Below, one piece after another: positions 3,598-47,346 of a stretch of DNA of 62,906 nt. The DNA lies in contig JAJRTH010000093.1 of assembly GCA_024278375.1 (NCBI GenBank), positions 1 to 62,906 on the forward strand, given 5' to 3'. The notes beneath the pieces are model-generated. The model did not search any database and was not told where the DNA came from. It saw only the letters and a program-made list of their open reading frames with translations. Source of the stretch: an archaeon (GTDB lineage: Archaea > Thermoplasmatota > Thermoplasmata > WALJ01). The position numbers were made by a program, and so were the translations under genes. Every line of letters starts with the position of its first letter. Position 1 is the stretch's first letter.

Positions 3598-3610
3598 AAG
3601 AGGTGTAAAA

Positions 3611-6766: not shown

Positions 6767-7108
6767 TTATATCTCTTCTATCGTGTTTTTCATATAGCTT
6801 ATTATCTCTTCTTCTTTGTTCTGTGTGTTTACTGCAGCCACCAGGATTCCTTTCATACCCCCCGAGACTATGAATATCTTTATTCCTCCCGTTTCGACGA
6901 CCACGTATTCGGGGTTCGGCTGTCCGAGTTCCGTAGCTGCCGTTCCGGCCGCACCCAGAACGGTCGCACACATTATGCTGAAGGTCTCTGGATATGCACC
7001 CTCCAGCACCTCGAGATATTTCGGCATTCCGTCCCTGGTAATGAATCCCGCTGCAATGACGGGAAATTTCTTTTTCATATCTTCTATTATATTATTTATT
7101 TCAGCCAT
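6767..7108 (-). CDS. Roadblock/LC7 (MglB-like) domain protein
   Basis: 113-aa ORF with the Roadblock pattern 'GFITRDGMP...ETGGIKIFIVSGG'. Confidence 0.7.
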   Translation of the reverse strand: MAEINNIIEDMKKKFPVIAAGFITRDGMPKYLEVLEGAYPETFSIMCATVLGAAGTAATELGQPNPEYVVVETGGIKIFIVSGGMKGILVAAVNTQNKEEEIISYMKNTIEEI

Positions 7109-7114
7109 GTTCTC

Positions 7115-7546
7115 TCACACTCCTTTCCTCTCTAACCTGAACACGCAGTTCTCATCTCCCTTGCTCTCACACTCTATTTCCTCGCAGTTGAAACCGTCAT
7201 TGTAATAGTTTTCATATACTCTCTTTATGATGCCTTTCAGGAGATGACAGCTCTGCGCTCCCTTTCCTTCCTCAACCTCTATTGAGCCGCTTACAACGGC
7301 TTTGTTCTCGGAGAACAGGACCTTCTCGGCCCAACCTCTTCCCGCCAGGAGATTTGCCGCCACTTCAAAGTATTTCTCCTTTTCTCCTTCCGAGCTTTTC
7401 ATCGCTATCTCTGCAATATTGTCCCCGAGAACCTCTCCTTCTCTGAAAAAGAGACCGTGACACGCATAGGACATCACACTCTCGTATATCTTCCGTATGT
7501 CGAGAAGCTCGTCTCTGGAAATCCTTATGGTACGAATCGGCATCAA
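7115..7546 (-). CDS. V4R domain protein
   Basis: 143-aa ORF. C-terminal 'CHLLKGIIKRV...EEIECESKGDENCVFRL' matches the V4R (4-vinyl reductase) cysteine pattern. Lies immediately upstream of the Roadblock gene. Confidence 0.6.
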   Translation of the reverse strand: MMPIRTIRISRDELLDIRKIYESVMSYACHGLFFREGEVLGDNIAEIAMKSSEGEKEKYFEVAANLLAGRGWAEKVLFSENKAVVSGSIEVEEGKGAQSCHLLKGIIKRVYENYYNDGFNCEEIECESKGDENCVFRLERKGV

Positions 7547-7754
7547 AACCTGTATGGACTGGATGTTTATAAAGTTTCCTTATTGGCGGACAATCTTTAC
7601 TGATTCAAGGACTTTTAGAAAATTAGTATTGTCAAAAGAAATCTTTATCTTCATTGATTGATCTGTGTTTCGAAGCCAAGGTTCTGACCCTGGAGACCCT
7701 CTGCGGAACAAAAGCGCGGGAAAATCAGGAGGGCAGTCGCACCTTCTTTCCTTT

Positions 7755-8657
7755 TTACGCCACAAGAACGACCCTACTAGGCCTGTACTCCATAACGACT
7801 TCCCTTCCGGTATGCCCTGCAATCTTTTGCCCGAATTCCCTTATCTCCTCGTGAGAAGGCATGTTGTCCATCGTCATCCTTTCCCTCGAGTAGCCAACGA
7901 AGACGTAGCCTTTTGCCTATATGAAATCTGGGTCCGCTTTCTCGATGAGCTTCGCATATTCTTTTTCGTGGCCTTCCATATTCCAACCTTTTACCAGAGT
8001 ATGCCTTACGACCGTCCTGGTATCGAGCGAAGGGAGGAGTCCAAGGGTCTCGTTAAGTCTTTCCCACCCATCGCTTATCATGGGAACTAGGAGCCGATTG
8101 TAGAGGTCCTCGTTGGGCGCCGCGACGGTGACATAAAGCTGTGTCGGTAGGGGGTCGAGGTTCTCTATGGCCTTCGGGAGGGTTCCGTTGGTGACCAGGA
8201 AGGTCGTCATGCCTCTTCTGTGGGCCAGTTCTATGAACTCCCCGAGTCTGGGATAGAGGGTCGGCTCTCCGCTGAGGGATATGGCTATCTGGCTCGGCTC
8301 GTAGGCCTCATCGAACATCTCTCTCTTCACCCTCGAGTCTCCTTTGAATCCCGAAATCAGTTCTCTCTGCGCTCCGATTAGCCCATCCAGTATGAATTCA
8401 GGGTCGTCGACCTTTTTGAGGGCGGTTTCCGTGAACGCCTGAAATCTCCAGCAGAAAAGGCAGTTCTGTGTGCACTGATTTACGGCGGGAGACATCTGAA
8501 GGCATCTGTGAGACTGTATCTCGTAGAATACCTCCTTGTAGCACGGCCGTCCCCTGACCAGCTTCTCTTTAAGCCAGTGACACAGTTTGACGCCGCTGTG
8601 CCCACCTACGATTCTGTAGTGCTGTTTTTCCAGTATCCTTTTGAGCTCGGGCTCCAT
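7755..8657 (-). CDS. taw1: tRNA 4-demethylwyosine synthase Taw1/TYW1 (radical SAM), interrupted by one in-frame TAG at 7917-7919
   Basis: The track ORF 7917-8657 carries the radical-SAM cluster 'CTQNCLFCWR'. The same frame continues after TAG as 'AKGYVFVGYSRERMTMDNMPSHEEIREFGQK...' to TAA at 7755-7757. The total of 300 codons matches the usual Taw1 length. Confidence 0.8.
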
Positions 8658-8666
8658 CGTATCCTC

Positions 8667-9431
8667 CTACATCTCCGGGTATTTGCCGTTTTTCATGAAC
8701 TGCAGACTCCTTATTCCGTCATCGATTCCTCTGTCCATCTCGAGGACGAGATTTCCTCCGTATCCTCCGAGAGCATTCAGCAGCCTGTCCCAGTCTATGG
8801 TCCCTTCACCAAGGGGAAGGTGCAGGTCCGCCTTTCCGTCATTGTCGTGTAAATGCACGTTTCCGAACATTCTCCTGTGTTCCAGAAATGCCTCCATGGT
8901 GCCCGTCGTGTTGGCGTGTCCCGCATCAAAGCACCACTTTATCTCCAGACCTTCGGTCATCTCCACAATATCTTCCGGCCGCTTGCCGACGGTTATGAAT
9001 GTATCCGGCATGTTCTCCAGAGCAAGGATTATTCCATTGTCCAGAGCGTGTTTCTCAAGGATTTCAAGGCTCTTTTTCGTCTCTTCCCTGACTCTTGGAG
9101 GATCCCTTAAAAGAGGCGTTTTAAAACCGGGATGGATGGTCATGATCTTCACTCCCAATCTTCCCGCGGACTCGATGGCCTTTATTATCTCGTTAAGAGC
9201 GCTCTCCCTCATGAATGGATTTCCTCCCGCGATGTTTATGTCGCTGAGAGGTGCGTGTACCTGTATCTCAAGAGGGCGAGATTCCAGGGCCTCCGCGAGC
9301 TTCTTTTCAATGCCCGGAAGATACAAAGTTCCCTCCGCGGTTATCTCCCATCCTTCGAAGTTCCTCTCTACGAGTTCGAAGACCCTCTCGAAGGGCATGT
9401 TGCAGAACGATGCGCTCGATATCATTATCAT
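8667..9431 (-). CDS. sugar phosphate isomerase/epimerase (xylose isomerase-like TIM barrel)
   Basis: 254-aa ORF. 'HLHDNDGKADLHLPLGEGTIDW' and 'ALENMP' blocks of the AP_endonuc_2/TIM-barrel family. TAG stop. Confidence 0.7.
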   Translation of the reverse strand: MIMISSASFCNMPFERVFELVERNFEGWEITAEGTLYLPGIEKKLAEALESRPLEIQVHAPLSDINIAGGNPFMRESALNEIIKAIESAGRLGVKIMTIHPGFKTPLLRDPPRVREETKKSLEILEKHALDNGIILALENMPDTFITVGKRPEDIVEMTEGLEIKWCFDAGHANTTGTMEAFLEHRRMFGNVHLHDNDGKADLHLPLGEGTIDWDRLLNALGGYGGNLVLEMDRGIDDGIRSLQFMKNGKYPEM

Positions 9432-9809
9432 TCATTCACCTGTGAAGGTCAGCCAGTGGATGAGCTTTGTCGGGTTCTCATCCCTGATTTCTATACCTAT
9501 TTCGCCCAAAGCCGGATTGGTGCCTCCCAGAGATATCTTTCCCATGAATGCGGCCTGCTTGCTTATGCTGAACTTTATCCTGTCTCCCTCAATCTTTCCC
9601 ATGAGAAAGTGCCTTGCGGTGTCCCTTATCCTGAGGTCCCTCAGTATCTCCTGAAATCTGTCCAGGGTGTGTGTCCTCGCCACTATCTTTCCATCCGATT
9701 TTTCGATATCCGCATCCGGAAATATGTTCAGCACAGCCTTTCTCACCTTTTCATCGTCTTCCGTGTTGTGGACCTCTGCTTCTATGCTAACTTCCATGGG
9801 GGTGCGCAT
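9432..9809 (-). CDS. UPF0201 family (COG1931) putative RNA-binding protein
   Basis: Start moved to an internal ATG ('MRTPMEVSIEAEVHNTEDDEKV'); ATG at 9797 is also possible. The upstream 50 codons of the track ORF look non-coding. Confidence 0.55.
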   Translation of the reverse strand: MRTPMEVSIEAEVHNTEDDEKVRKAVLNIFPDADIEKSDGKIVARTHTLDRFQEILRDLRIRDTARHFLMGKIEGDRIKFSISKQAAFMGKISLGGTNPALGEIGIEIRDENPTKLIHWLTFTGE

Positions 9810-9845
9810 CCGTATCCTTATTTTAATCTTCCGTGTCGCAAAACC

Positions 9846-9854
9846 TATTTTATA
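9846..9854. promoter_or_regulatory. TATA-box-like element in the divergent intergenic region
   Basis: 'TATTTTATA' lies between the UPF0201 gene (minus strand) and the M20 peptidase gene (plus strand), about 27-35 nt upstream of the TTG at 9881. Confidence 0.35.
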
Positions 9855-9880
9855 CCCGCCGATTTCCGCACGGTGATTTC

Positions 9881-11101
9881 TTGAATCTCTCCGAAACGGT
9901 CGAATCTCTGAAGGATGAAATGGTAAAGGCGATGGTGGAGATGCTGAGAATAGAGGCAATAAGCCCGGAATCTGGGGGGAAGGGGGAGCTAAAAAGGGCC
10001 GAGTTCCTTGAGAAATGGATGTCTGGATTCGGTTTCGACGAGATAAAGAGATGCGATGCGGAGGACTCCAGAGCGGAGGGAGAGGTCAGGCCGAACATAA
10101 TCGCCACGATATACGGGAAGAACAGAGAGCGCACAATCTGGGTGATAAGTCACATGGACACCGTTCCCGTGGGGGACATCTCCAAATGGGAAACCGACCC
10201 GTTCGACCCCGTAGTCAGGGACGGGAAAATATACGGCAGGGGAGCGGAGGACAACGGACAGTCCCTGATAGCGTCCATGTACGCTGCAAAGGCTATAATC
10301 GATTCCGGAATGAAACCGGATTACAATTTCTCTGTGGCGTTTGTCTCGGACGAGGAGACTGGAAGCAAGTACGGGATACAGCACCTTGTGAAGCTCGGAC
10401 TCTTCAAAAAGGACGACCTCGTGGTGGTTCCTGATCACGGTGTGCCGGAGGGAAATGAGATAGAGATAGCCGAGAAATCTATTTACTGGGTCAAAGTTAC
10501 GACATACGGAAAACAGACGCATTCCAGCATACCACATACGGGAATCAATGCGCTCCGTGCCGGCTCCAGATATCTCGTTGAGGTTGATAGAGCCCTACAC
10601 GAAAGGTTCTCCGAAAGGAATGAGCTGTTCAGTCCGCCTATATCCACCTTCGAGCCTACGAAAAAGGAGGAAAATCAGCCCAACATAAACGCCGTTCCCG
10701 GTGAGGATGTTTTCTACTTCGATATGCGCATAATACCGGAGCACAATATAGCCGACATAATGGGTCTGATGAACGAGGTCGCCGAAAGGGTTTCGAAGGA
10801 GACCGGCGCCAGGATAGTCCCGGAGGTTTACAGGGGAGAGCAATCGCCACCGCCTACACCCCCCGATTCCGAGGTTGTGATGAGGCTGAGCAGGGCCATA
10901 GAAAAGGTTAGAGAGATAAAGCCCAAATTGGTCGGCATAGGTGGGGGAACCTGTGCGGCATACATAAGGCAGGCCGGAATCCCTGCGGCGGTGTGGAGCA
11001 CGATAGATGAGACCATGCATCAGGCTAACGAGTACTGCAAGATAGAGAACCTGGTTAACGATGCGAAGGTGTTTGCGCTCCTCGGGTTTCGGCAGATCTG
11101 A
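9881..11101 (+). CDS. M20 family metallopeptidase (ArgE/DapE-like)
   Basis: 'ISHMDTVPVGD', 'GRGAEDNGQSL' and 'VSDEETGS' metal-ligand motifs. Start moved from the GTG at 9833 to the in-frame TTG at 9881, because a TATA-like box lies inside the longer ORF. Confidence 0.75.
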   Translation: MNLSETVESLKDEMVKAMVEMLRIEAISPESGGKGELKRAEFLEKWMSGFGFDEIKRCDAEDSRAEGEVRPNIIATIYGKNRERTIWVISHMDTVPVGDISKWETDPFDPVVRDGKIYGRGAEDNGQSLIASMYAAKAIIDSGMKPDYNFSVAFVSDEETGSKYGIQHLVKLGLFKKDDLVVVPDHGVPEGNEIEIAEKSIYWVKVTTYGKQTHSSIPHTGINALRAGSRYLVEVDRALHERFSERNELFSPPISTFEPTKKEENQPNINAVPGEDVFYFDMRIIPEHNIADIMGLMNEVAERVSKETGARIVPEVYRGEQSPPPTPPDSEVVMRLSRAIEKVREIKPKLVGIGGGTCAAYIRQAGIPAAVWSTIDETMHQANEYCKIENLVNDAKVFALLGFRQI

Positions 11102-11136
11102 GGGAAATTTTTTTAAACCGTAGCGGATGCATCGCC

Positions 11137-11799
11137 ATGGCAAGAAGAAGGCACGAGAAGGAAGAAGAGGAGGAGAAAGAGGTCTTCACTCCTCCGGAGT
11201 TCGACGAAAAGGAGTATATACACAAGGAGGTCAACAAATCAAAAGCCAGCATAGCGATAGTCTTTCTCGGTCTGATTTTTGCCGTGCTGTCCACCGTTGT
11301 TTTTCTCAGCACCCTCTCATGGGCTTACGGCGCTCTGATTGGCCTTTCCGGCTTCTTTTTCTTCAAGTTCGTATACCCTCTGTTCAGGGTCGATGTTTTC
11401 ATTCTGGAAAAGAAGGACTATCTCGCACATGGCTTCGTCTATCTCTTCACATGGCTTGCAATCTTCATACTCTGCATAAACATGCCGTTCGCAGACCTTA
11501 CCGGCCCTTCGATATATGACGTGCATCTCCAGGGATATCACAACGATACATGGCTGCCCTACAACACCACCGGAGATTTCTCGGCCTACAGGATAGTCGC
11601 CACCGTGACCGACAACTCCGACATAGTCTCCGTTGAAATCAGGGAGTTCAACAACGACAGCTGGGCTGAGATGGAGAAACTGGACGATATCAGATATTAC
11701 TTCTCGGTGCCGTCTCCGCCGGAAACTTCCATGAAGTACTACATAAAGGCCACAGACGCCAACGGACACGAGACCACCATATCCTGGAAAATGGCCTGA
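11137..11799 (+). CDS. membrane protein with C-terminal beta-rich domain, unknown function
   Basis: 220-aa ORF with an acidic N-terminus, about 3 hydrophobic helices, and a C-terminal Ig-like-looking segment. Confidence 0.4.
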   Translation: MARRRHEKEEEEEKEVFTPPEFDEKEYIHKEVNKSKASIAIVFLGLIFAVLSTVVFLSTLSWAYGALIGLSGFFFFKFVYPLFRVDVFILEKKDYLAHGFVYLFTWLAIFILCINMPFADLTGPSIYDVHLQGYHNDTWLPYNTTGDFSAYRIVATVTDNSDIVSVEIREFNNDSWAEMEKLDDIRYYFSVPSPPETSMKYYIKATDANGHETTISWKMA

Positions 11800-11841
11800 T
11801 CTGGCCAGAAAAGTATAAATTTATGTTGAAGATGACGCTCT

Positions 11842-12138
11842 ATGCCAACAGAAGAAGAGATTATGGAAGCTCTTAAAGAGGTCTATGACCCGGAGATAGG
11901 GCTGAATGTGGTCGAGCTCGGGCTCATATATGGTGTTAAAGTCGAAGGAAAGAAGGTAAAGGTAACCATGACCCTGACCGTCCCCGGCTGTCCCCTCGCA
12001 CAGACTATAACAGAGTATGTGGGCAGGAGAATCCATCAGATGGAAGATGTGGAAGATGTGGATGTCGAACTTACCTTCGACCCGCCATGGAGCTTGGAAA
12101 GGATGACTCCGGAAGCGAGGAAGAAGATAGGACTGTAA
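11842..12138 (+). CDS. Fe-S cluster assembly protein, DUF59/MIP18 (SufT-like)
   Basis: 98-aa ORF. 'EVYDPEIGLNVVELGLIY...TLTVPGCPL' is the canonical DUF59 signature. Confidence 0.75.
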   Translation: MPTEEEIMEALKEVYDPEIGLNVVELGLIYGVKVEGKKVKVTMTLTVPGCPLAQTITEYVGRRIHQMEDVEDVDVELTFDPPWSLERMTPEARKKIGL

Positions 12139-12168
12139 GTTTTATATTCCCTATTTCCATCCTGTTCC

Positions 12169-12684
12169 ATGCCTGAATTCGTGGACGAGGACCTGAAAGT
12201 AGAAGCCGCTCTCTTTTCCGCAGGTAAGCCTCTGAGCATCGCCGAGATAGAAAGAATAACCGGCGTAGGAAGGAGAAAGGTTAGAAAGGCTCTAGATTTT
12301 CTGATGGAGGAGTATGCTTCGAGGGATACGGCCATAGAGATAGTCAAGATAGGCAACAAGTACTCCATGCAGCTGAAGGAGAAATATGCGGGCATAGCAA
12401 TGGAGGTCGTTCCGATGGAGCTTCCCAAGGAGGTTCTCAAGACCGCTGCGCTCATAGGCTATCATCAGCCGGTCAAGCAGGCGATGCTGGAGGAAATGGT
12501 GGGATCAAGGGTGCTGGAGCACATAAAAATCCTCGAGGATATGGGTCTGATAAAGAAAAAAAGGGAAGGGAGATATATGGTCGTCCACATCACGCCGAAG
12601 TTTGCGGAGTACTTCGGGCTGGAAGGTGCGAAACCCGAGGACATAAAGAGAATACTGGCTGAGAGGGCTGGACTAGATGGGTAG
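12169..12684 (+). CDS. scpB: segregation and condensation protein B
   Basis: 171-aa ORF with an 'EAALFSAGKPLSIAEI' winged-helix N-terminus typical of ScpB. TAG stop. Confidence 0.7.
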   Translation: MPEFVDEDLKVEAALFSAGKPLSIAEIERITGVGRRKVRKALDFLMEEYASRDTAIEIVKIGNKYSMQLKEKYAGIAMEVVPMELPKEVLKTAALIGYHQPVKQAMLEEMVGSRVLEHIKILEDMGLIKKKREGRYMVVHITPKFAEYFGLEGAKPEDIKRILAERAGLDG

Positions 12685-13267
12685 GCTTCCGGAGAACGGA
12701 GTTGCCTATGAGACGATAGTCATCACGGAAAACAGACATACGAATGCCACAGCGCTCTCCGCAACCAGAAAAGGCGAGCACATACTCCTGCGCTCCTTCA
12801 AAGGCTCCAACACCTTCGAGAACCTGAGAAAAACGGAAAAATTCTCGGTAAATTACATCTCTTCGGAAAACAAGGAGGCGTTCATAAAGGCCGCCGTGAA
12901 GGGCTGGGGGGACGAGGAAAGAGAATTCTCAGATGAGGAAATATCCAAGAGATACGGGTTTCCTGTCCTGAAGATCGCCTCGGGTGTTGCTATATGCACT
13001 GTTGAAGACAGAGAGCTTGAAAGGGTGGAGGACGAGATAGGAGAAACCGAGGTTCTGAAGGTCAGAGGAAGAATTGTGCTCTGGGAAGGGGGCGCGGAGA
13101 ATGCCATAAAAGTGGGTGAGGACAGGAACATAATGGCTCTTGTCGCATACACGAGATACCTTATATCTGAGGGAGAAGTGAGGGGAAAGTACCGGAAAAG
13201 AGCCATGGAGTTGGCAGATGATAGGGATGTGGTGGGAAAGTGGGTGATTAGAAACCTACAGCCCTAA
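12677..13267 (+). CDS. DUF447-like split-barrel protein
   Basis: 196-aa ORF whose ATG overlaps the scpB stop. The call rests on overall resemblance to archaeal DUF447 proteins and is tentative. Confidence 0.4.
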   Translation: MGRLPENGVAYETIVITENRHTNATALSATRKGEHILLRSFKGSNTFENLRKTEKFSVNYISSENKEAFIKAAVKGWGDEEREFSDEEISKRYGFPVLKIASGVAICTVEDRELERVEDEIGETEVLKVRGRIVLWEGGAENAIKVGEDRNIMALVAYTRYLISEGEVRGKYRKRAMELADDRDVVGKWVIRNLQP

Positions 13268-22158: not shown

Positions 22159-22230
22159 GCAGGGGAATGTGCGGAAATATTTACCTTTATCTCTCTTCCC
22201 TGCGAAAAATTTATATCCTCATAAACATAT

Positions 22231-22590
22231 ATGGCTTCCGTGAGATGCTCCTGGGTGCTTTATCTGCTAAGAAACGTGGGGATCTGGACATGCATCATTG
22301 CGGGGATTCTGGCGCTCCTCTCCTTACTGGCCGATCCGAATCACTTCATTTATGCTTTCAAGGGCTCGCTGTTCTATTTCGGCCTCTTCCTGATAGTCGC
22401 CGGGGGACTCGTGGGTGCGGGGTTCTCCGAGGCCGTATACTACAACAGCGGACTTTACAGGGTCTCGAACCTATACATGGACACAATAAACAAAGGCAGA
22501 CCGGAGAGAAGAGACCGGCAGTTCTCGTTCACCGTTTATGCGCTCCTCGTGGGATTTATACTGATATTCCTGGCGTTTGCTCTGCCTTAA
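22231..22590 (+). CDS. small membrane protein, unknown function
   Basis: 119-aa ORF with about 3 TM helices. TATA-like 'AAATTTATAT' lies 15-24 nt upstream, so the transcript may be leaderless. Confidence 0.4.
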   Translation: MASVRCSWVLYLLRNVGIWTCIIAGILALLSLLADPNHFIYAFKGSLFYFGLFLIVAGGLVGAGFSEAVYYNSGLYRVSNLYMDTINKGRPERRDRQFSFTVYALLVGFILIFLAFALP

Positions 22591-22645
22591 GGGTTAGTTT
22601 AAAGTCCATAGAAAATTTTATATAGTCAGATTGATATCTATTCCT

Positions 22646-23069: not shown

Positions 23070-23699
23070 ATGCCCTCCAAGGGAGAGCTCGTCATGGAGC
23101 GCCTCATGCACCTGCATGAAGGCAGATTCGTCGGGCTTAAGCACGAAAATGTCTTCCAGCTTACCGTTGCCACAATACTTTCGGCGCAGACGACCGATGC
23201 CTCGGTGAACAGGGTAACGCCGGAGTTCTTCGGAAGGTTCCCGGATGCGAAAAGTCTGGCAGAGGCTGATGTTGAAGAAGTCAAGAAGTACATAAAGAGC
23301 ATAGGACTGTACAACACGAAGGCGAAGAACATCGTGGGGCTGGCGAGGATTCTGGTGGAGAGGTACGGTGGTAAGGTGCCAGATAACATGGAAGAACTCA
23401 CTGCGCTCCCGGGAATAGGGAGGAAGACCGCCAACATAATCCTATCAGTTGGATTCGATAAGACAGAGGGAATTGCGGTGGACACGCATGTCTTCCGCAT
23501 TGCCAGAAGGATAGGACTTTCAAACGGAAAAACTCCGTTGCAGGTGGAAAAGGACCTTCTCAGAGAGATTCCGAGAAAGTACTGGAAGTATGTCAATCAC
23601 ATACTGATAACCCACGGGAGGGCAGTATGCACGGCCAGGAATCCAAAGTGCGATGAATGCGATATAAGTGACCTGTGCGGGAGGAATGGGGTGGAATAG
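23070..23699 (+). CDS. nth: endonuclease III
   Basis: HhH-GPD core ('LTALPGIGRKTANI') and a C-terminal 4Fe-4S loop 'CTARNPKCDECDISDLC'. TAG stop. Confidence 0.85.
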   Translation: MPSKGELVMERLMHLHEGRFVGLKHENVFQLTVATILSAQTTDASVNRVTPEFFGRFPDAKSLAEADVEEVKKYIKSIGLYNTKAKNIVGLARILVERYGGKVPDNMEELTALPGIGRKTANIILSVGFDKTEGIAVDTHVFRIARRIGLSNGKTPLQVEKDLLREIPRKYWKYVNHILITHGRAVCTARNPKCDECDISDLCGRNGVE

Positions 23700-23736: not shown

Positions 23737-24120
23737 GTGCCTCAGATAGTCGTCTTCGATGCCAATGCCCTGCTCATGCCCTTCCAGTTCGGGATAAACA
23801 TAGATATGGATATCGAAAGACTTGTTGGTGAGTTTCACGGGGTCGTGCCGAGCCCGATACTGGGCGAGATAAGAAAGTGCGGCGGAAGATGGGCAAAGGT
23901 AGCGCTCTCCCTTGCGAAGAAGTACGAAATTACGAGGACTGAGAACACGGGTGATAAGGCGGTGATAGAGATTGCCGAGAAACTCAATGGAATCGTGGTA
24001 ACGAACGATGAGGAACTCCAGAGAAAGCTCAGATTGAATGGAATACCTTATATCTATCTGAGAAGCAGACACAGGCTGGAGATGTGGAACAGGGAGGAAA
24101 TTGGATACATCAGACCATAG
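23737..24120 (+). CDS. PIN-domain nuclease, Fcf1/Utp24-like (COG1412 type)
   Basis: 127-aa ORF with GTG start. 'VVFDANALLMPFQF' N-terminal PIN acidic motif and 'VVTNDEELQRKL'. TAG stop. Confidence 0.6.
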   Translation: MPQIVVFDANALLMPFQFGINIDMDIERLVGEFHGVVPSPILGEIRKCGGRWAKVALSLAKKYEITRTENTGDKAVIEIAEKLNGIVVTNDEELQRKLRLNGIPYIYLRSRHRLEMWNREEIGYIRP

Positions 24121-24151: not shown

Positions 24152-24215
24152 GATAGAACATAGGGCCATATGTGATGCTAATTGATGGTTGTCTGGGTTC
24201 TCAGGAGGAAAAACG

Positions 24216-24845
24216 TTGTCAAGCAGATTGAGTGAGATATTCAAGGACGAGAAACTCGTAAACCGGATTAAAACGAAACTGCCTTATCTCTTTCAGCTTG
24301 CGGAGCTGGAAAGCTCTAGAGCTGGAAAGATAGGAATGGAAGTGGGCTCTCTAAGAGAGAGAATCCTCATAGCGCTCCTGATATACAAGTTCGGGGAGGC
24401 CAATGTGGAGATCCGGGCGATAACGGAACCGGAAGTCGATGTCTGGCTCTTTGGGAATCCGATTTCCATAAAGACGATAACCGGTAAGAGCCTCGGAGGT
24501 GTTAAACTAATATGGACCGTAGACGCACAGAAGGCTGCTGAGTTCAGAAGATATTATGTACCTTCGTGCGATATTCTGCTTGTTCGGATAAACTGGGGAG
24601 GCCTAGGTGGGTTTTACTACATCCCTCTAGAGGCCCAGAGGAAACTTCTCGAAGAGATAGGGAGAGAACGATATATCAAACTGCCCAAACCGGGGACAAA
24701 TCCGAGGGGAGTGGAGATAAGCAAAGAAGCCCTTAATGCTCTGGTAGATGATGGGCTCTCAGACTACATAGAGATAAGATGGGAGAAAAAAGAAATCGAT
24801 TATAATGCCTATAAAAGATGGGTGGAATACTGGGGGGAGGATTGA
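24216..24845 (+). CDS. putative type II restriction endonuclease (PD-(D/E)XK-like)
   Basis: Start moved to the TTG preceded by 'AGGAGG'. 'EPEVDVWLFGNPISIKT' fits an E/D...(S/E)xK nuclease core. Its stop lies immediately before the methyltransferase ATG (GAT TGA ATG). Confidence 0.5.
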   Translation: MSSRLSEIFKDEKLVNRIKTKLPYLFQLAELESSRAGKIGMEVGSLRERILIALLIYKFGEANVEIRAITEPEVDVWLFGNPISIKTITGKSLGGVKLIWTVDAQKAAEFRRYYVPSCDILLVRINWGGLGGFYYIPLEAQRKLLEEIGRERYIKLPKPGTNPRGVEISKEALNALVDDGLSDYIEIRWEKKEIDYNAYKRWVEYWGED

Positions 24846-25799
24846 ATGAAAAAGAATGGAAAGAGAAAAGGAACCGAAACCAGCAAATTCGGCGTTCCAG
24901 GCAGGATAAATCACGATTCCAGCAAGTTCTATTCGGGAAGGCTTTACGAGGGCCTGCCATCGGAAAAAAAGGTTGAGTACCATGAAAACGAGATTCCGGA
25001 AGAGAATCTGGACAGGATATTCTGCAAATCCAGCGAAAAAATGGAGGAATTGCCGGATGAGAGCGTGCATCTCATGGTAACTTCTCCGCCGTATAATGTT
25101 GGAAAGGAGTATGACGAGAATCTTACGCTTCAGGAATACAGGGATTTTCTGAAAAGAGTTTGGGCGGAAACATATAGGGCCCTAGTTCCTGGGGGAAGGG
25201 TTTGCATAAATGTAGCAAATCTTGGAAGGAGACCCTATATTCCTCTCAATTCTTTCATTATTCAGGATATGCTCGAACTGGGATTTCTCATGCGCGGGGA
25301 GATAATATGGGATAAAGGTTCGAGCGCCAGTCCATCCACGGCATGGGGGAGCTGGATGTCTGCCAAAAATCCGGTATTGAGGGATGTTCATGAGTACATC
25401 CTGGTGTTTTCAAAAGATACTTTCACCCGCGATAGTCTCAAATCATCCAGAAGCACCATTTCCAGGGAGGAATTTCTGGAGTTAACAAAAAGCGTATGGT
25501 CTTTTCCCGCTGTTTCGGCGAAGAAAATAGGGCATCCCGCACCCTTCCCTGTTGAGCTGCCCTACCGGTGCATACAGCTCTATACATTCAAAGAAGATGT
25601 GGTCCTCGACCCTTTCATGGGTAGCGGACAGACCGCAATAGCGGCCATAAAAACCGGAAGGCACTATATTGGTTATGAGATAAACGAGGAGTATGTGAGG
25701 AGCGCTCAAAAGAGGATCAGAGAATTTCTGATAGAGTTCAGATCGCCCAAACTAATAGATTACATAGATGGAAAAAACGATGCGAAAGAGGGGGTTTAG
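24846..25799 (+). CDS. DNA methyltransferase, N4-cytosine/N6-adenine beta class
   Basis: Catalytic 'TSPPYN' motif precedes the SAM-binding 'VLDPFMGSGQTAIAA' (beta-class order). TAG stop. Confidence 0.8.
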   Translation: MKKNGKRKGTETSKFGVPGRINHDSSKFYSGRLYEGLPSEKKVEYHENEIPEENLDRIFCKSSEKMEELPDESVHLMVTSPPYNVGKEYDENLTLQEYRDFLKRVWAETYRALVPGGRVCINVANLGRRPYIPLNSFIIQDMLELGFLMRGEIIWDKGSSASPSTAWGSWMSAKNPVLRDVHEYILVFSKDTFTRDSLKSSRSTISREEFLELTKSVWSFPAVSAKKIGHPAPFPVELPYRCIQLYTFKEDVVLDPFMGSGQTAIAAIKTGRHYIGYEINEEYVRSAQKRIREFLIEFRSPKLIDYIDGKNDAKEGV

Positions 25800-25852: not shown

Positions 25853-26731
25853 GTGTCTTCCCGCTCCGCCTATCTCTATGCTCTCTCCGCCGTGTTGTTG
25901 TGGTCCACGGTAGCATCAGCGTTCAAGCTCTCGCTGAGATACATGGAGCCGCTGGCTCTGCTGTTCTATTCCTCTCTCATCAGCCTTTTAGTTCTTTTTC
26001 TGGTGCTGTTGTTTCAGGGAAGGCTCGGTTTTCTGAAAGGGCTCTCGAGATCGGACTGTCGCCACTATGCGCTCCTCGGACTCCTGAATCCCTTTGTTTA
26101 CTATCTCGTCCTTTTCAAGGCCTATGATATTCTGCCTGCTCAGGAAGCACAGCCGCTGAATTACACGTGGCAGATGGTGCTCTCTGCGCTCTCCATCTTC
26201 GTACTGAAGCAGAGGATGGGGCTGCGGAATGCTTCGGCTATAGGCATAAGCTTCCTTGGCATAGTGATGGTCTCCAGCAGAGGTTTCATGCTTCACTTCT
26301 CAGACCCCCTCGGCGTAGGCCTTGCGCTGGGGAGCGCCTTCGTCTGGGCATCGTTCTGGATACTCAACCTCAAAGATGGCAGGAATGCCGTGGAGAAACT
26401 CTTCATGTGCTTTCTCTTCGGTTCCGCCTATATCGGAGCGCTCTTCCTCCTCATGGGACCTTATGCGCCTCCTATCGAGGGTTTAATGGGTGCCGCATAT
26501 GTCGGTCTCTTCGAGATGGGTTTGACCTTCATACTCTGGCTCAGAGCCCTTGAGCTTTCGGAGAAAACCGCAGAGGTGAGCATGCTGATATATCTGGCTC
26601 CCTTCATATCTTTTGTGATAATTCACATCTTCGTCGGTGAAGAAATCCTCCTGTCCACAGTTGCGGGCACGATTCTGATCGTCTCAGGGGTCATTCTGGG
26701 CACCTGGAAGAGCAGTGCTAGAAACGGGTAG
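25853..26731 (+). CDS. EamA/DMT family transporter
   Basis: 292-aa, 10-TM ORF with duplicated EamA-like halves. GTG start about 25 nt after the TATA-like 'TTCTTTTAAATC'. TAG stop. Confidence 0.75.
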   Translation: MSSRSAYLYALSAVLLWSTVASAFKLSLRYMEPLALLFYSSLISLLVLFLVLLFQGRLGFLKGLSRSDCRHYALLGLLNPFVYYLVLFKAYDILPAQEAQPLNYTWQMVLSALSIFVLKQRMGLRNASAIGISFLGIVMVSSRGFMLHFSDPLGVGLALGSAFVWASFWILNLKDGRNAVEKLFMCFLFGSAYIGALFLLMGPYAPPIEGLMGAAYVGLFEMGLTFILWLRALELSEKTAEVSMLIYLAPFISFVIIHIFVGEEILLSTVAGTILIVSGVILGTWKSSARNG

Positions 26732-26905: not shown

Positions 26906-28402
26906 GTGAAGAGCGCTACACATCGAAGCACGAAAAGCCTGATTATAAAAGGGCTCAAGGACCTCTCCGAAAACAAGGAAGCGAGGAGAAAAGTGGATGA
27001 GAGTTATTTCAAGGAGCTGAAAGGCAAGGAACACTGGATGCTTTACCTGCTGATGTATGCCATTGACAATATGGAGAATGAGCTCTTCAGTGCCATTGAG
27101 GGACTTTCCAACGAGCAGAAGAGGTTCGAAGCCCAGACGTTCAAGGCCATAAAGGAGGAGAGAGAGGCACTTATAAAGGTTAGGAAATCCATAGAGAACA
27201 ACCTCAGAACATTCGAGGAGAAGATGGCGGAACTACTGGACAGACGCATGGCGGAGCAGAAAGAGGAGATTGCCAAGGAGTTAGAGAACCTCCTGGAAGG
27301 CACGCTGAACAAATCGCTCAGGGAAATCGACGAATCGATTTCCGATCTGTCCACAACAATCCAGAACATGTCCTCGGGATTTTCCGACACCTACAAACTG
27401 GTATCACACAATCAGAGCATGATTGCCAAGATCGGTAAAAAACTCGAGGAGATAAGCGAGGACATCTCCGCTCTCGACGAGAGGATCGGTATCGAAATAT
27501 CGAGAATACCGGGTGCGGAGGGCGCTGCAAAGGCCATGAAGGAGCTTGAAAGGAGCATCGAATCCATGAAGGCCATATCCGGAGATGTGGAAAAGATAAA
27601 AGCCGCTCTGGAAGGGCTTGAGGGGCTTGACAAAATATCACGGTTCTCGGATGTGGTGGAGGGGCTTGAAAAAGAGGTCGAAGAGGTCAAGAACGGGCTG
27701 GATTCCCTCAATTCCGTGATGTCCGAGAAAATCGCTGAGGCCATGAGGAGCGCGGGTGCATCGGCGGAACTCTAGAGAAGAATCAAGGAGTTGGGTGACA
27801 AGGTAGATTCCATAAACATAGACCGTATCTCCGAATCGTTGAAGGGGCTCGAAGGCCTCGATCAGATAGCCTCCCAGGTCGAGGATGTCAGGAAAAGGCT
27901 GGGATCTTTTGAGGAGCTGGGGGATTTCTACGGCGAAATAGACGATTTGAGAAAGAAACTGGAAAGCATAAAGACCATAGAGGACGAAGTTAAAAGAGAC
28001 ATGGACGTTCTGAGGAGGGTTGTCGGGGAATTCGAGGAGGTGGCCTCTCTGACCGAGATGCTGGGAGAGATGTCTTCCAGAGTCAAGAAAGTGGAAGAGT
28101 TCGGTGAAAAACTGAGTTCCATCGATATCCAAGGCCTTAAAGACAAAATCGAATCCGCCGGTATTGCTTCGTTCGACCCCGCTCTGATTGAGAAACTCGA
28201 TTCCATAGGCGCTCTAGCTGAAGAAATCGAGACCCTTAAACCGATAAAGAAAGAGGTTGCTTCCCTCCAGGAGAAGGTTATGGAGATAGAGAAAAAGGTG
28301 GATATGATACTGAAATCCACGAACAAACATCTTGATGTAGTGGAAAAGAACCTCAAAGCGGAGATTGCGAAGTTAAGGGGAGAGGGTGGTGGAAGTGGAT
28401 AG
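26906..28402 (+). CDS. long coiled-coil protein; two same-frame ORFs joined by a single in-frame TAG (27773-27775)
   Basis: ORFs 26906-27775 and 27791-28402 are in the same frame, with only TAG plus 5 sense codons between them ('...AGASAEL*RRIKELGDKVDSI...'). Both halves carry the motif L(E/K)GLEGLD(K/Q)I. The second half has only a TTG start, with no properly spaced SD. Confidence 0.55.
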
Positions 28403-28425: not shown

Positions 28426-28830
28426 ATGGTTAGATGTGAGAATTGTGGGGAGATAATTTCAATACATAATGATGTCTGCCCTTACTGTGGAGCGCTGCAG
28501 AGACGAGGCAAAAAGATTGGTGAGAAAACATCTGGCATAGCTATATTCAAGGCGCTGATTGTTGGTCTTTCATTAATGTTTCTTGGTATGGTTTTAGGCT
28601 TATTCACCTTTGGTCTTTTAGGAATGGGCATAGGTACTCTTTCCGGTTTATCTCTAGGGCTATGCCTCGGTACAAAAATGTATTTACCCAATCAATCAAA
28701 AACCCCCACAAAAACACCAATAACCTCTGTTCTTATTCTTCTTATAGTCTTCTTCGTTACTTTCATTTTAATATTTTTGGTCTTCTCTATGACTCCGTAT
28801 CAACCGCCTAAAAAAAGAAACATTTTGTAG
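28426..28830 (+). CDS. N-terminal zinc-ribbon membrane protein
   Basis: 134-aa ORF. 'CENCG...CPYCG' ribbon followed by about 3 TM helices. AT-rich region. TAG stop. See the A7 run at 28810-28816. Confidence 0.5.
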   Translation: MVRCENCGEIISIHNDVCPYCGALQRRGKKIGEKTSGIAIFKALIVGLSLMFLGMVLGLFTFGLLGMGIGTLSGLSLGLCLGTKMYLPNQSKTPTKTPITSVLILLIVFFVTFILIFLVFSMTPYQPPKKRNIL

Positions 28831-29018
28831 AAGTCTATGTTTATTATGATGATAATTGGGAGGGCGTACTTGGGTGGGGGGAGAGTACAAGCTCTGAAAG
28901 TGGATATGGAAATGCAAAATTTTGGGGAAACTTATCTGATGGGGATTTTGTTTATATCTCCACCCAGAAATGGGATGAGAGCAATAAGGAAATAAGAGTA
29001 GAGAGAGATATATGTTGA
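28812..29018 (+). other. start-less ORF in the -1 frame that would extend the zinc-ribbon membrane gene
   Basis: 68 codons with no ATG/GTG/TTG ('KKKHFVEVYVYYDDNWEGVLGWGESTSSESGYGNAKFWGNLSDGDFVYISTQKWDESNKEIRVERDIC'). It opens inside the A7 run of the upstream gene. Confidence 0.35.
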
Positions 29019-29102
29019 TGGAGTTCTTAAGAGAATTGCTTCTACAGAATCCCCTTATGGAATAGCCTCAACATATATGACTATTTAGTGCTCTTTTTTA
29101 CT

Positions 29103-30098
29103 TTACAGCCTCACTCTTTTTATCTTCAGATATCTCGGTTTTTCTGAGGCCTCCGCCAGCAGAAAGTTCTTCTTCACCCCATGGGCTAGCCTAACCCCTC
29201 TGCTTATCTCGGGCCATGTGCCGACATAGTTCTCAGGGACTGCGTGGACAAGATATGGGGCGTGGTGTTCTATGTCTCTCACATAAACCCTGAAATGCGT
29301 GCCGTATTTGAAACCGGTTTTCACGATCAGCCCTCTGTCCCTGAGATCGGAGTATATTCTGATTTTCCGTTCAAACTCAGGGTCACTCACACACATTTCC
29401 TTTATTATACCCTCCGCAGATCTGGTTTTTCCCCCCACATCCTTTATTTCAGTGATGCCTTTCCTCTCCAAATATACACATTCTATGGCGGAAAGATGCA
29501 GATTCTTTTCTATTATTTTCCCGTAGAACCCTTTTTTATGGATGCCTCCGAAATCCTCCGCGAACCCCATCTCGCCCAGAAACATCACGTATACGTTCTC
29601 CTCGGACCGCAGTTTCAGGGGCCCCCAGGGATCCTCTCTTTCAATTGAGTAGTAAGTTAGGTCCCCATCGCCGTCAACGACCGCGAATATTCTTTTACCA
29701 TCTCCCACCTTCTCGAATATATCGTCGAATGAAAAAGTCACCCTCTCATAAACAGGCACTATAAGATATTCGTTCTCCTCTACCCCCCGTACTGCCTTTA
29801 TGTGCCCGTTCTCTCTCACCATGAATCCTCTCTTCCTTAAATCGCGATATACCAGGTACCTAACCTCAAAATCATGGGTTCTCTCAACAGCGTATCTGAG
29901 AAACTCGCTGAGAGTTAAATTCTCGACAGTTAGTTTTCCCTCATTCATGAGATAAAATGCTTCCACGAACGTGAGAGAGAGAGCGCCGCCTTTTATGAAC
30001 TCTCCGGTCTGGCCTTTGCTGTGAATCTTTCCCGCCTCTACAACATCTCTGACAATAACCCTCCCATCACTAATGATGCCTGTGAAGGACTCCCTCAA
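29103..30098 (-). CDS. endA: tRNA-splicing endonuclease (two-repeat type)
   Basis: 331-aa ORF. Catalytic C-terminal unit 'GLIVKTGFKYGTHFRVY...HAPYLVHAV' plus a degenerate N-terminal copy. Confidence 0.85.
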   Translation of the reverse strand: MRESFTGIISDGRVIVRDVVEAGKIHSKGQTGEFIKGGALSLTFVEAFYLMNEGKLTVENLTLSEFLRYAVERTHDFEVRYLVYRDLRKRGFMVRENGHIKAVRGVEENEYLIVPVYERVTFSFDDIFEKVGDGKRIFAVVDGDGDLTYYSIEREDPWGPLKLRSEENVYVMFLGEMGFAEDFGGIHKKGFYGKIIEKNLHLSAIECVYLERKGITEIKDVGGKTRSAEGIIKEMCVSDPEFERKIRIYSDLRDRGLIVKTGFKYGTHFRVYVRDIEHHAPYLVHAVPENYVGTWPEISRGVRLAHGVKKNFLLAEASEKPRYLKIKRVRL

Positions 30099-30507: not shown

Positions 30508-31461
30508 TCAGTCCGTGATTCCCTCTTCCATTATTCTCAGGACAGCTTCGCCCTCGGGAAGGTTCGGTGAATCTATGAGTCTGGCGATTCTCTTGTCTCC
30601 CTTTGATTTTCTGAGATATACCCTGAACGTTGCTGTGTGTCCGACTATGTGCCCTCCTATCGGCCTTGTCGGATCCCCGAAGAAGGCATCCGGCTTTGCA
30701 GCGACTTGGTTGGTCACACATATGGCGGCATTGTTCAGCGTTGCGAACTTCAGGAGTTTGTGCATGTGCTGGTTCAATAGCTGCTGCCTTTCCGCAAGAG
30801 CACCTCTTCCGACATATTCCGCCCTGAAATGAGCGGTCAGGGAATCCACTATGACAAGCTTTATAGGCCTTTCCTTTGCAATCTCAAACAGTTTGTCCAC
30901 AAGAAGTATCTGATGACTTGAGTTGTATGCTCTGGCAACATGTATCTTCTAGAGCACGTCTTCCGGATTTATGTCTATACCCAGCCTCTTCGCAGTACCT
31001 TCCACCATCTGCACTATTCTTTCCGGTCTGAAGGTGTTCTCCGTATCTATCATGGCAACCTCTCCTTCCAGGCCCCCGTATTCCTTTGAGAGAGTGGTAT
31101 TCACGGCCAGCTGATGCATGACCTGCGTCTTTCCGGACCCGAACTCGCCGAAGAACTCGGTTATGGACTCTGTCTCGACGCCCCCACCCAGGAGGTCATC
31201 GAAGGCTTTCGAGCCCGTGGTAACCTTCCTTATCTCCTTCCTTCTCTCCATTATCTCGGTACCGCTCTCAAAATCTCCGATATCGGCGGCCCTTTTAGCC
31301 GCATTTATTATCTTCGCAGCTATCCCCTCTCCTATCTCTGCGATTTCCGCAAGATTTCTCGGGGATTCCACGGCTATTGCCATTATGCTGTCATATCCTG
31401 CGTCTTTGAGCTTCTCGGCGGTCGCAGGCCCCACGCCGGGTAATTTTTCTATTTCATCCAT
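30508..31461 (-). CDS. radA: DNA repair and recombination protein RadA, interrupted by one in-frame TAG at 30949-30951
   Basis: The N-terminal ORF (30949-31461) has the HhH domain and Walker A 'GEFGSGKTQ'. The same frame continues after TAG as '[49 protein letters not shown]...' to TGA at 30508. The total of 318 codons matches the usual RadA length. Confidence 0.9.
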
Positions 31462-31515: not shown

Positions 31516-31764
31516 GTGAAAGTGAAACACTGGAAGTCTGTCAGAACTTTAAGGAAAGAAATATCGTGCTTTCATATATGGCACCGAGGAAGCAAGTTAA
31601 CATCATTGACATTACCGAACAACATAAATATAACCTATGCATATCTTCCAAATAGTGATAGAATTATGAGGGACAACAGAGATGTAATACTTCATCAATC
31701 CTATGAGGAGAAAGAGATGCCCTTCAATACAGACGGCCTATTTGGTAAAGAGGCGAGTGAATGA
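31516..31764 (+). CDS. hypothetical small protein (doubtful)
   Basis: 82-aa GTG ORF preceded by a strong SD 'AGGAGGTGA' (31507-31515). Its stop overlaps the next ATG (ATGA). Composition is not obviously protein-like. Confidence 0.2.
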   Translation: MKVKHWKSVRTLRKEISCFHIWHRGSKLTSLTLPNNINITYAYLPNSDRIMRDNRDVILHQSYEEKEMPFNTDGLFGKEASE

Positions 31765-32942
31765 GGAGGACGAAGATTGTCACGGTCACGATTCTTCTTT
31801 CGATGCTGTTCTTTACCATGCCTTTTTTGGTGGTCAGTGCTAAGGAATGGGAACCCAGAGAGCCGATAGAGATCCATAGAGGAGCAGTGAATGAAAGCAC
31901 AAAGTGGTATGATTATGGGATTTCTTGGTCCTCAGATGGGGAATATTTTGCATTTAGATGTATGTGCGAGCCAAAGCTTACGGTTGTGAATACAGACAAT
32001 GGCAAGATTGTGTTCTCAAAAAATTATTCTCCCTGTTTTGACTTAGCGGCCTTGAAATTTTCACCGGACGGAAGATATTTGGCTGTCGGCTCATCGAAAA
32101 CTCTAGAAATCTTTAATACAGATGGCTGGGGACTTGTAAAAAATTATAGTGCTTATGCATATTCTCTTTCTTGGAGCCCGAACGGAAGATATTTGGCCTA
32201 TCCAGCAACTATGGGCGGCAATATTGGAATAATAGACACCAGAAACTGGGAGATATCTCATGAATTCAAAAATAAGTCGGGGATTGTGTCTTGGTCTTCA
32301 GATGGGAAATATATCGCATATGCTTCTTCGGGATATGTAGGCATAATAAATGCCTTGACCTGGAATGAAACCCTATTGTTGAGGCTTCCTTCGATGTTGT
32401 CTGTGGTCGAATGTCTCGAATGGTCACCTGATTCTAGATATCTGGTTGCAGGAGAACTTGGAGGCTCTCTTCAGATCTGGAATACAAGCACATGGCATAT
32501 CGAGAATACTGTGGAGTTTGCACACGGAATACCTTTTTCTCTCTCATGGAATCCCAATAAGCCCATTCTTGCTGTTGGTTTGGACTCGAATATGCTGGCT
32601 GAGGATTCGATTCCAAAGCTATATCTCATAGACACGGAAAACTGGAGTATAGAGATAGAAATGAAACCCATAAATGAAACTGACCTTGCCTCTCTTAATA
32701 AAGACCCCAACTGGATAAATTTTTATTCTGTTGCTTGGTCTCCAGACGGAAATTCTCTTGCTGTCGGTTATAAAGACGTTATAGTTTATACAACGGAGAG
32801 AGGGCTCTTCGAACCCGAAGAGACAACAATGCTAGACACTTATTTATGGGCCCCTCTCGCTATGGTAATGCTAGTAGCGATTTCCGGCGGAGCAATATGG
32901 TACTGGAAGAAGGGAAGAAGCAAAACTAAAGATAAAAAATAG
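31761..32942 (+). CDS. secreted/anchored WD40-like beta-propeller repeat protein
   Basis: 393-aa ORF with a signal-like N-terminus and 7 repeats of the type 'SWS(P/S)DG(R/K)Y(L/I)A'. C-terminal TM helix plus a Lys-rich tail. TAG then TGA tandem stops. Confidence 0.65.
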   Translation: MRRTKIVTVTILLSMLFFTMPFLVVSAKEWEPREPIEIHRGAVNESTKWYDYGISWSSDGEYFAFRCMCEPKLTVVNTDNGKIVFSKNYSPCFDLAALKFSPDGRYLAVGSSKTLEIFNTDGWGLVKNYSAYAYSLSWSPNGRYLAYPATMGGNIGIIDTRNWEISHEFKNKSGIVSWSSDGKYIAYASSGYVGIINALTWNETLLLRLPSMLSVVECLEWSPDSRYLVAGELGGSLQIWNTSTWHIENTVEFAHGIPFSLSWNPNKPILAVGLDSNMLAEDSIPKLYLIDTENWSIEIEMKPINETDLASLNKDPNWINFYSVAWSPDGNSLAVGYKDVIVYTTERGLFEPEETTMLDTYLWAPLAMVMLVAISGGAIWYWKKGRSKTKDKK

Positions 32943-46527: not shown

Positions 46528-47346
46528 ATGCGCTCCATAATAATCTCCACGGAGGACATCGCAAGCAGGAACATCCGGGACAGGCTTCTGGAGGCGGAAG
46601 ATTGGGAGGAAATCGGAGAATTCCGTTCGTTCCCTGCCTACAGATGGAAGGACTATGTAATCTTGCAGCATGAGAAGCCCCACATATATGCAGAGGGCAT
46701 TGACGTCGAGGTGGAGAGCTTTATCGGAGAAAGACCGGAATTCCTTGTTTTTGCATCAAAACACAAAAGCGAGTCCGGAAAGAGAGCGCTGACCGTGCAT
46801 GCTGTCGGAAACTATGGAAAGGCAGAATATGGGGGAAAGGAGGGCACTCTCTCAGCGTCATGTCCCATACTGATGACCGAAGCCCTGAGGCTTGTAAATA
46901 AACACAACCGCCTCGGGGATTTCTCTGTTTCATATGAGGTGACCCACCATGGCCCTTATCTCGAAACCCCTTCATTTTTCATCGAAATCGGTAGTACGGA
47001 GGAGGAGTGGAGGAACATAACGGCGGGGGAGGCGATAGCAAAAGCCATTCTCGAACTCGGAGAAATCAGAGAAAGCAAGGACAAGATTGCCATAGGAATC
47101 GGCGGAGGGCACTATGCCCCGAGGTTCTCGGAGCTGGCACTGGAAAAAGCGATAAGTTTCGGTCATATGGCCCCAAGATATGCAGTGGAAAATCTGGATA
47201 GAAGGATGCTGGGGCAGATGGTCGAAAAGAGCGGAGCCGAATACGTTTATTTTTACAAGGTCGGCCTTAAGAGGTCCCAGATAACGGAGATGAGGAAGAT
47301 ACTGGAGGATATGGGAGTCAGGAGAATAAAGAGCGACGAGATGTAG
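46528..47346 (+). CDS. dtdA: D-aminoacyl-tRNA deacylase, archaeal type (DtdA)
   Basis: 272-aa ORF. 'VFASKHKSESG', 'EVTHHGP' and 'GIGGGHYAPRF' blocks. TAG stop. Confidence 0.65.
   Translation: MRSIIISTEDIASRNIRDRLLEAEDWEEIGEFRSFPAYRWKDYVILQHEKPHIYAEGIDVEVESFIGERPEFLVFASKHKSESGKRALTVHAVGNYGKAEYGGKEGTLSASCPILMTEALRLVNKHNRLGDFSVSYEVTHHGPYLETPSFFIEIGSTEEEWRNITAGEAIAKAILELGEIRESKDKIAIGIGGGHYAPRFSELALEKAISFGHMAPRYAVENLDRRMLGQMVEKSGAEYVYFYKVGLKRSQITEMRKILEDMGVRRIKSDEM

Follow-up and report, generated by a model that had tools for sequence, protein, structure and literature searches.

Whether an archaeon can make the RadA recombinase from a gene with a stop codon in its middle is the question raised by one minus-strand gene of the window, that is, of the whole 62,906-bp contig analysed here. 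An uninterrupted RadA reading frame of ~317 aa is missing from this locus because of a TAG at codon 171. The frame runs from the ATG at 31461 to the TGA at 30508..30510, 318 codons with one internal stop, and the minus-strand codons around that stop (GGT ATA GAC ATA AAT CCG GAA GAC GTG CTC TAG AAG ATA CAT GTT GCC) were found on re-reading to be just those quoted in the original prediction, with exactly one in-frame TAG. Under the standard code the gene gives a 170-aa ORF (30949..31461) and a 130-aa ORF whose earliest start is the GTG at 30900 (codon 188), 16 codons past the TAG, and the two halves are separately called genes in the NCBI record of the contig. Comparisons are made below with a number of related loci and with a sister genome, the MAG GCA_024277315.1, which was reached by cluster look-ups and is represented by loci L085-L087 (~23 kb). 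The radA features are as follows.

30508..31461, minus strand: radA, full frame of 317 sense codons (the TAG position included) plus TGA, assigned by an end-to-end RadA structure match
30949..30951, minus strand: in-frame TAG, radA codon 171; TCA (Ser) in the sister and in four metagenome relatives
30508..30900, minus strand: C-terminal radA fragment of 130 aa given by standard-code gene calling, with a GTG start; Walker B present, residues 172-187 missing

When read through the TAG, the product is collinear with known RadA structures along its whole length (1pzn at E=1.4e-118, its residues 36-349 corresponding to residues 3-317 of the product; also 2bke, 3etl and 1t4g), which bears out the expectation that RadA homology runs across the stop. 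The N-terminal HhH domain and RecA-fold ATPase core that are hallmarks of RadA are in place, as are both Walker A (GEFGSGKT) and Walker B (LVIVDS), and the relatives of the gene carry Pfam HHH_5 and Rad51. Its total length is also normal, as had been proposed: 318 codons, the RadA of relatives being 317 aa. Fifteen relatives at 83-91% identity have an intact RadA of this length in every case, the next tier (~72%) is of Thermoplasmata/Methanomassiliicoccales, and the nearest species-level genome is a hydrothermal Thermoplasmata MAG. Amino acid identity to the sister RadA (P0123) is 97.5%, in one frame and with zero gaps. The gene order AAA ATPase - radA - PRC barrel - tRNA-splicing endonuclease (EndA) is kept in the related loci L081-L085. 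Given the full-length structure match and the conserved neighbourhood, the gene is the organism's normal, orthologous recombinase gene; the contig has no radA or radB paralogue. A second intact radA and decay in relatives had been named in the original prediction as the signs of a dying copy; the contig holds no second radA, and the gene is intact, with no lesions, in all relatives.

Between radA and the AAA ATPase lies a WD40/PD40 beta-propeller gene (31761..32942, plus strand) that relatives do not have at this position; its protein begins with a signal-like segment and has a transmembrane segment at the C-terminus, and the gene ends in a tandem TAG-TGA stop.

The position of the TAG within RadA deserves a more exact description than "conserved", the word first applied to it. 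In a 23-sequence alignment the window retains all invariant residues (100+ columns are invariant among relatives), and the TAG is flanked by conserved residues (L170 on one side, K172-I173-H174 on the other), but its own column, 171, is hypervariable, being S/K/R/G/E/N/A/P/Q in 22 relatives and K, N or D in characterised RadAs; it is the most variable and most substitution-tolerant column of its RadA block. The 16 codons between the TAG and the next start do belong to the ATPase core, as was stated, and residues 172-187 are absent from the C-terminal ORF, so that two split RadA polypeptides would miss core residues.

The TAG had been viewed as a feature of radA, but at least two further conserved genes on the contig hold an in-frame TAG, and with at least three such genes the question moves from one broken gene to the organism's handling of UAG. 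The additional genes and their stops, with one further candidate, are these.

26906..28402, plus strand: coiled-coil protein gene of 498 codons, the second with an in-frame TAG, assigned by relatives' single genes; its TAG terminator (28400..28402) is kept in the sister
27773..27775, plus strand: in-frame TAG, coiled-coil codon 290; GAA (Glu) in the sister, Lys in distant relatives
7725..8657, minus strand: Taw1/TYW1 (tRNA 4-demethylwyosine synthase) gene, to an ancestral TGA common with the sister, the third with an in-frame TAG, assigned by Pfam and PDB
7917..7919, minus strand: in-frame TAG, Taw1 codon 247, in place of a conserved Glu (F-I/V-E-x-K); GAG in the sister
7755..7757, minus strand: TAA, Taw1 codon 301; GAG (Glu) in the sister alignment
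28426..28995, plus strand: Zn-ribbon/membrane ORF, candidate fourth TAG gene, with a TAG at 28828..28830 and the frame open for 54 more codons to a TAA

The coiled-coil ORF 26906..27775 stops at its TAG and the same frame carries on into ORF 27791..28402; residues 1-492 of the read-through product align to single genes of 477-495 aa at the syntenic position in L081-L084, and the product also aligns to the sister P0125. In Taw1 the Pfam domains are Radical_SAM and Wyosine_form, the latter (residues 240-300) spanning the TAG, and an alignment to a Methanosarcinaceae homologue likewise spans it; the protein matches PDB 2yx0 at E=1e-107 and the sister P0133 at 93% amino acid identity in a single frame. 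At the column of the Taw1 TAG, every cluster relative shown has Glu, as do L065 and the PDB entries 2yx0 and 2z2u. The TAA at codon 301 is 10 codons short of the TGA common to both genomes and trims a variable tail. It is also the second Glu-to-stop change within this one gene.

With off-frame shadow ORFs removed, the TAGs of radA, the coiled-coil gene and Taw1 are the only stops in the window that homologue alignments span; the confirmed cases are 3 of ~77 contig genes, none of them a methyltransferase. All three fall in Category 1 of Kivenson et al., which comprises genes whose internal TAG has, before and after it, >30% identity to known proteins, with an extension of >15 aa. An automated interrupted-gene baseline over 84 loci was left out, being swamped by off-frame shadow ORFs of conserved genes. 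An apparent TAA "interruption" of the tRNA endonuclease gene was rejected as alignment run-on, since the best alignment ends at the TAA. Past the TAG of the candidate Zn-ribbon ORF 48/50 aa match a sister gene fragment, but the sister segment is 98% identical in nucleotides and coding constraint therefore cannot be read from this part.

A segment at ~28560..29140 is 93-100% nucleotide-identical to the sister, with flanks at 60-90%, and the sister contigs L085 and L086 both end within it. Neither an Rfam match nor a repeat elsewhere was found for the segment, which is possibly a recent exchange between co-occurring populations or an unrecognised conserved element.

The sister's DNA is 83-92% identical to the window. 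Each of about 30 sister genes could be aligned to the window in a single frame, with no frameshift and no internal TGA, and the only stop among them besides the TAGs is the TAA near the Taw1 end. Between window and sister, dN/dS is 0.028 upstream and 0.007 downstream of the TAG in radA, 0.019 and 0.047 in the coiled-coil gene, and 0.10 and 0.054 in Taw1; the segments past all three TAGs stay under strong purifying selection. For radA past the TAG, dN is 0.0075 against a dS of ~1.1, from which the TAG, if it were a null allele, would be very young and would have arisen in roughly the last 1% of the divergence from the sister. The Taw1 tail is equally variable between relatives without the TAG. 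In the coiled-coil protein identity to the sister is 95.2% in the upstream half and 86.5% in the downstream half, for which window and sister are about equally far from outgroups.

Divergence from the sister is uneven along the genome, and this suggests recombination between the two lineages: a 6.2-kb block shared by L087 and window positions 7006..13245 is 92.6% identical and without gaps, while other shared blocks are at 74-85%.

TAG is at the same time a working terminator on this contig. It terminates ~15-16 of the ~77 genes (~20%), a count from which two minus-strand "TAG-ending" ORFs, 3295..4029 and 22167..22625, were discarded as shadows of real genes. Two of the TAG-terminated genes are these.

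23070..23699, plus strand: Endonuclease III with a true TAG terminator; domains complete, nothing recognisable after the TAG
8667..9431, minus strand: AP_endonuc_2-family gene, TAG terminator at 8667..8669, TAG in the sister alignment too

At least ten genes have complete domains that end just before a TAG, with nothing recognisable beyond. Endonuclease III is accompanied in this by a DNA methylase (24846..25799), ScpB (12169..12684) and D-Tyr-tRNA deacylase (46528..47346), and the same pattern is seen in EamA (25853..26731), a sulfotransferase (173..1051), GT1 (1072..2250) and PIN (23737..24120). Homologue alignments finish 2-5 residues ahead of the TAG in three genes, and TAG terminators are common to window and sister in at least five. 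Terminator changes between the two genomes go both ways (TAG>TAA, TAG>CAG, TAA>TAG), and no enrichment of backup stops was found after the TAG terminators. Read-through of TAG would give out-of-frame overlaps of >60 nt, reaching ~240 nt where 1072..2250 would run into 173..1051. The AP_endonuc_2 TAG is three codons upstream of the Taw1 start and in frame with it, so that UAG read-through of this gene would yield an AP_endonuc_2-Taw1 fusion protein.

The explanation tentatively favoured here, although its chance is put at somewhat under one half, is an ambiguous decoding of UAG that involves Pyl or some other amber suppressor and allows full-length RadA to be made. The archaeon would translate through UAG at a useful frequency by means of a tRNA with a CUA anticodon that competes with aRF1, and full-length RadA (~35 kDa) would be made beside the truncated 170-aa product; the tRNA may be Pyl-tRNA(Pyl), encoded by a pyl cassette that was acquired, or a different amber suppressor. 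UAG is taken as ambiguous rather than reassigned in this model because TAG still ends ~20% of the genes. Ambiguous decoding is the favoured explanation of why three constrained genes tolerate a TAG. From three independent conserved genes with one in-frame TAG each and homology continuous across it, from the lack of frameshifts and internal TGA in the genes aligned to the sister, from the strong constraint past the TAGs, from the lack (below) of any sign of a mutation burst or of methylation-linked miscalling, and from the placing of the radA TAG in the most tolerant column of its block, we infer read-through and with it some inserted residue. The literature offers precedents. Pyl archaea decode UAG both as stop and as Pyl with no cis element required, and span genomes with >15% TAG genes and few internal TAGs to the fully recoded Code 34 (bioRxiv 10.1101/2024.09.30.615893); in M. 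acetivorans UAG is read both as stop and as Pyl (PMC12626013), and in Archaea stop-codon read-through has been demonstrated for Sec and Pyl only (PMC8211752). On the contig the 120 nt past each TAG fold no better than shuffled sequence (z = +2.0, -0.1, -0.2), giving no PYLIS-like structure.

Several observations speak against read-through, beginning with the decoding machinery. The contig encodes one tRNA (Gly) and has no other Rfam match, and on its 62.9 kb neither pylTSBCD, nor tRNA(CUA), nor a methylamine methyltransferase gene (mtmB/mtbB/mttB) was found; its C1 genes are of the folate type (FolD, SHMT, GcvT, a pterin-binding enzyme) and the rest is ordinary Thermoplasmata housekeeping. A search for PylRS, which weighs neither way, returned only gut, Methanomethylophilaceae/Methanomassiliicoccaceae-type sequences with no link to this clade. 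For the share of TAG stops, medians of 22% in Pyl-minus and 5% (range 1-27%) in Pyl-plus archaea are given in PMC12626013; the ~20% of this contig is close to the Pyl-minus median and shows none of the reduced TAG terminator use that is typical, though not universal, of Pyl users. The known Pyl users in the phylum of the Thermoplasmata, Thermoplasmatota, are Methanomassiliicocci, and non-methanogenic Thermoplasmata clades basal to Methanomassiliicoccales are without pyl genes (bioRxiv 10.1101/2020.03.09.984617). Read-through would moreover bring the large overlaps and the fusion protein described above, and part of the TAG terminators are common with the sister. In Taw1 the TAG stands where Glu is conserved, and the bulky Pyl would fit poorly there. 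Close relatives do not have these TAGs and no independent assembly confirms them.

The main competing account takes the TAGs for real nonsense mutations of very recent origin that have become fixed in the population and are not read through; radA, taw1 and the coiled-coil gene would then be early pseudogenes whose loss is tolerated. This is judged rather unlikely, and is kept in serious consideration because of the unreduced TAG terminators, the lack of a decoder on the contig, the lineage, and the conserved Glu that was struck in Taw1. It is consistent with relatives that lack the TAGs and with TAG being otherwise an ordinary terminator at a share typical of Pyl-minus archaea. The TAG and TAA in Taw1, two Glu-to-stop changes in one gene, are what is expected of a dead gene, and the greater divergence of the coiled-coil downstream half from the sister is in keeping with the same view. 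Codon usage makes TAG the commonest nonsense outcome here, expected for 53% of random nonsense mutations, so that three TAGs out of three have P ~0.15 and the exclusive occurrence of TAG is weakened as evidence for decoding. Against recent nonsense stands the requirement that three losses in ~30 conserved genes, with no frameshift, TGA or relaxed constraint, must all be extremely recent, most acutely in radA with its very low downstream dN. The relaxed selection and further lesions that are the hallmark of pseudogenes are not seen, with the one exception of the Taw1 TAA; the contig is gene-dense and free of other decay, and has no second radA or radB to compensate.

No mark of a mutator episode is seen, in missense changes or in G>T. 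The substitution spectrum against the sister is symmetric (330 G:C>T:A, 300 in reverse), as are the single-step missense changes (38 and 43 in 6,075 codons), and oxidative damage or a mutator burst was rejected on this balance. A process yielding four Glu/Ser-to-stop changes should leave ~30 extra G>T missense changes, and none are in excess.

The same counts bear on the improbable alternative that the stops are consensus errors of the metagenome, from low coverage, damaged template or polishing, the true codons being Glu GAG in Taw1 and the coiled-coil gene and Ser TCG or similar in radA. An error rate that gave four stops would have left the ~30 missense changes just mentioned, and the alignment of ~6,000 codons to the sister has zero frameshifts and a balanced G>T. 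The Taw1 TAG is one G>T step, the signature of oxidative damage, from the sister GAG, and in three of the four stop changes the ancestral codon was one for Glu; the radA TAG (TCA in relatives) and the coiled-coil TAG (GAA) are, however, two steps from the relatives' codons. Coverage was presumably reasonable for a contig of 63 kb. In favour of error, the TAGs are confined to this one contig. An exact-fragment cluster look-up in a 15-billion-protein collection found the same gene fragments in no other assembly, an exact-flank metagenome scan for the TAG allele gave nothing, and a degenerate-motif metagenome scan gave four clade members, all TCA at the radA site and with no TAG copy; the accessions were not found mentioned in the literature. 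Two of the TAGs have the context CTC-TAG-A, where a GAG codon would create a CTCGAG site, and the contig has a DNA methylase. Methylation-linked miscalling was nevertheless rejected, since CTCGAG shows no depletion, with 32 sites where 32.7 are expected; the endonuclease adjacent to the methylase is of the ThaI type (CGCG).

This endonuclease gene (PF15514, E=3e-92) is directly upstream of the N6_N4 DNA methylase gene, the two occupying 24189..25799 of the window, and they are likely a CGCG-specific restriction-modification pair. CGCG is under-represented in the window (observed/expected 0.47) and in relatives, and GATC is strongly avoided in window, sister and relatives alike (observed/expected ~0.33). 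Avoidance of CTAG is weaker in the window, where its 46 sites give an observed/expected of 0.59 against 0.30 for the sister and other relatives; these sites cluster at 12-17 kb and 24-38 kb.

Full reassignment of TAG to sense (Genetic Code 34, with all TAG as Pyl, or similar) would account for three Category 1 genes with homology on both sides of an internal TAG but is highly improbable and is contradicted by the window data, as complete domains end before TAG in at least ten genes, alignments stop just short of it in three, the terminator is conserved in the sister in at least five, and read-through would create large out-of-frame overlaps (Category 4). That RadA is a naturally split recombinase of two separately translated polypeptides is equally far-fetched, for although both halves are open reading frames the C-terminal one can start only at GTG codon 188 with the loss of 16 conserved core residues, all relatives have a single 317-aa RadA, and the like interruption of two unrelated genes would be left unexplained.

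Within the preferred reading of ambiguous UAG decoding the nature of the decoder may be carried one step further, although only as a doubtful proposal: a non-methanogenic, hydrothermal Thermoplasmata would read UAG as sense in housekeeping genes while keeping its terminator role, and the decoder might be a suppressor that inserts a standard amino acid. Glu would be the best fit, since it is the ancestral residue at both the Taw1 and the coiled-coil TAG and is conserved in Taw1, and Glu is found in one relative at the radA column. Such decoding, if true, would make the organism a natural "ambiguous intermediate" in a lineage not among the known Pyl users, and read-through that inserts Glu would be a new archaeal code variant.

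More generally, if read-through is real, amber decoding would occur in a lineage and lifestyle where none has been described, and would affect core DNA-repair and tRNA-modification genes rather than methylamine methyltransferases, with TAG terminators unreduced; it would represent the early ambiguous stage that is postulated by codon-reassignment models and rarely caught. Should the TAGs prove to be true null mutations, RadA would be lacking from the dominant population of the sample, which is relevant to archaeal genome maintenance but of much less general interest. Standard-code annotation has split radA, Taw1 and the third gene into fragments in the public record, and since the gene is fragmented such MAGs would be scored as without RadA. 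Finding several TAG-only interruptions on one contig is thus an inexpensive way to spot recoding or a faulty assembly.

The RadA described here resembles the RadA/Rad51 proteins of P. furiosus (1pzn), S. solfataricus (2bke) and M. voltae (1t4g) in being full-length and collinear with them, and differs in the UAG at residue 171. To our knowledge no characterised RadA needs stop-codon read-through. The interrupted genes are like early nonsense pseudogenes in that a single premature stop, absent from relatives, lies in an otherwise intact gene, and unlike them in that three genes are hit at once, by TAG only and without frameshifts or relaxed constraint, on a contig that is otherwise free of decay. 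With Genetic Code 34 (Methanomethylophilus, Methanococcoides and others) they share the occurrence of TAG inside essential or conserved genes, but that code is defined by having no TAG terminators, whereas here TAG ends ~20% of genes and the overlaps are large. Unlike known Pyl users, the host is an apparently non-methanogenic, hydrothermal Thermoplasmata, with no pyl or methylamine methyltransferase genes on the contig. In Group A genomes internal TAGs are confined to a single gene or very few, for the most part methyltransferase genes, in contrast to 3 of ~77 on this one contig, none a methyltransferase, and one TAG here replaces a conserved Glu, unlike the situation in the ambiguous-UAG Pyl archaea. 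With these archaea (Methanosarcina acetivorans; Groups A/B, Kivenson et al. 2024) the contig nevertheless shares the retention of TAG as a terminator, the independence of a downstream structure (none is found here) and the occurrence, in housekeeping genes, of internal TAGs that are flanked by homology before and after; a high share of TAG genes is also reported for some Pyl-plus genomes.
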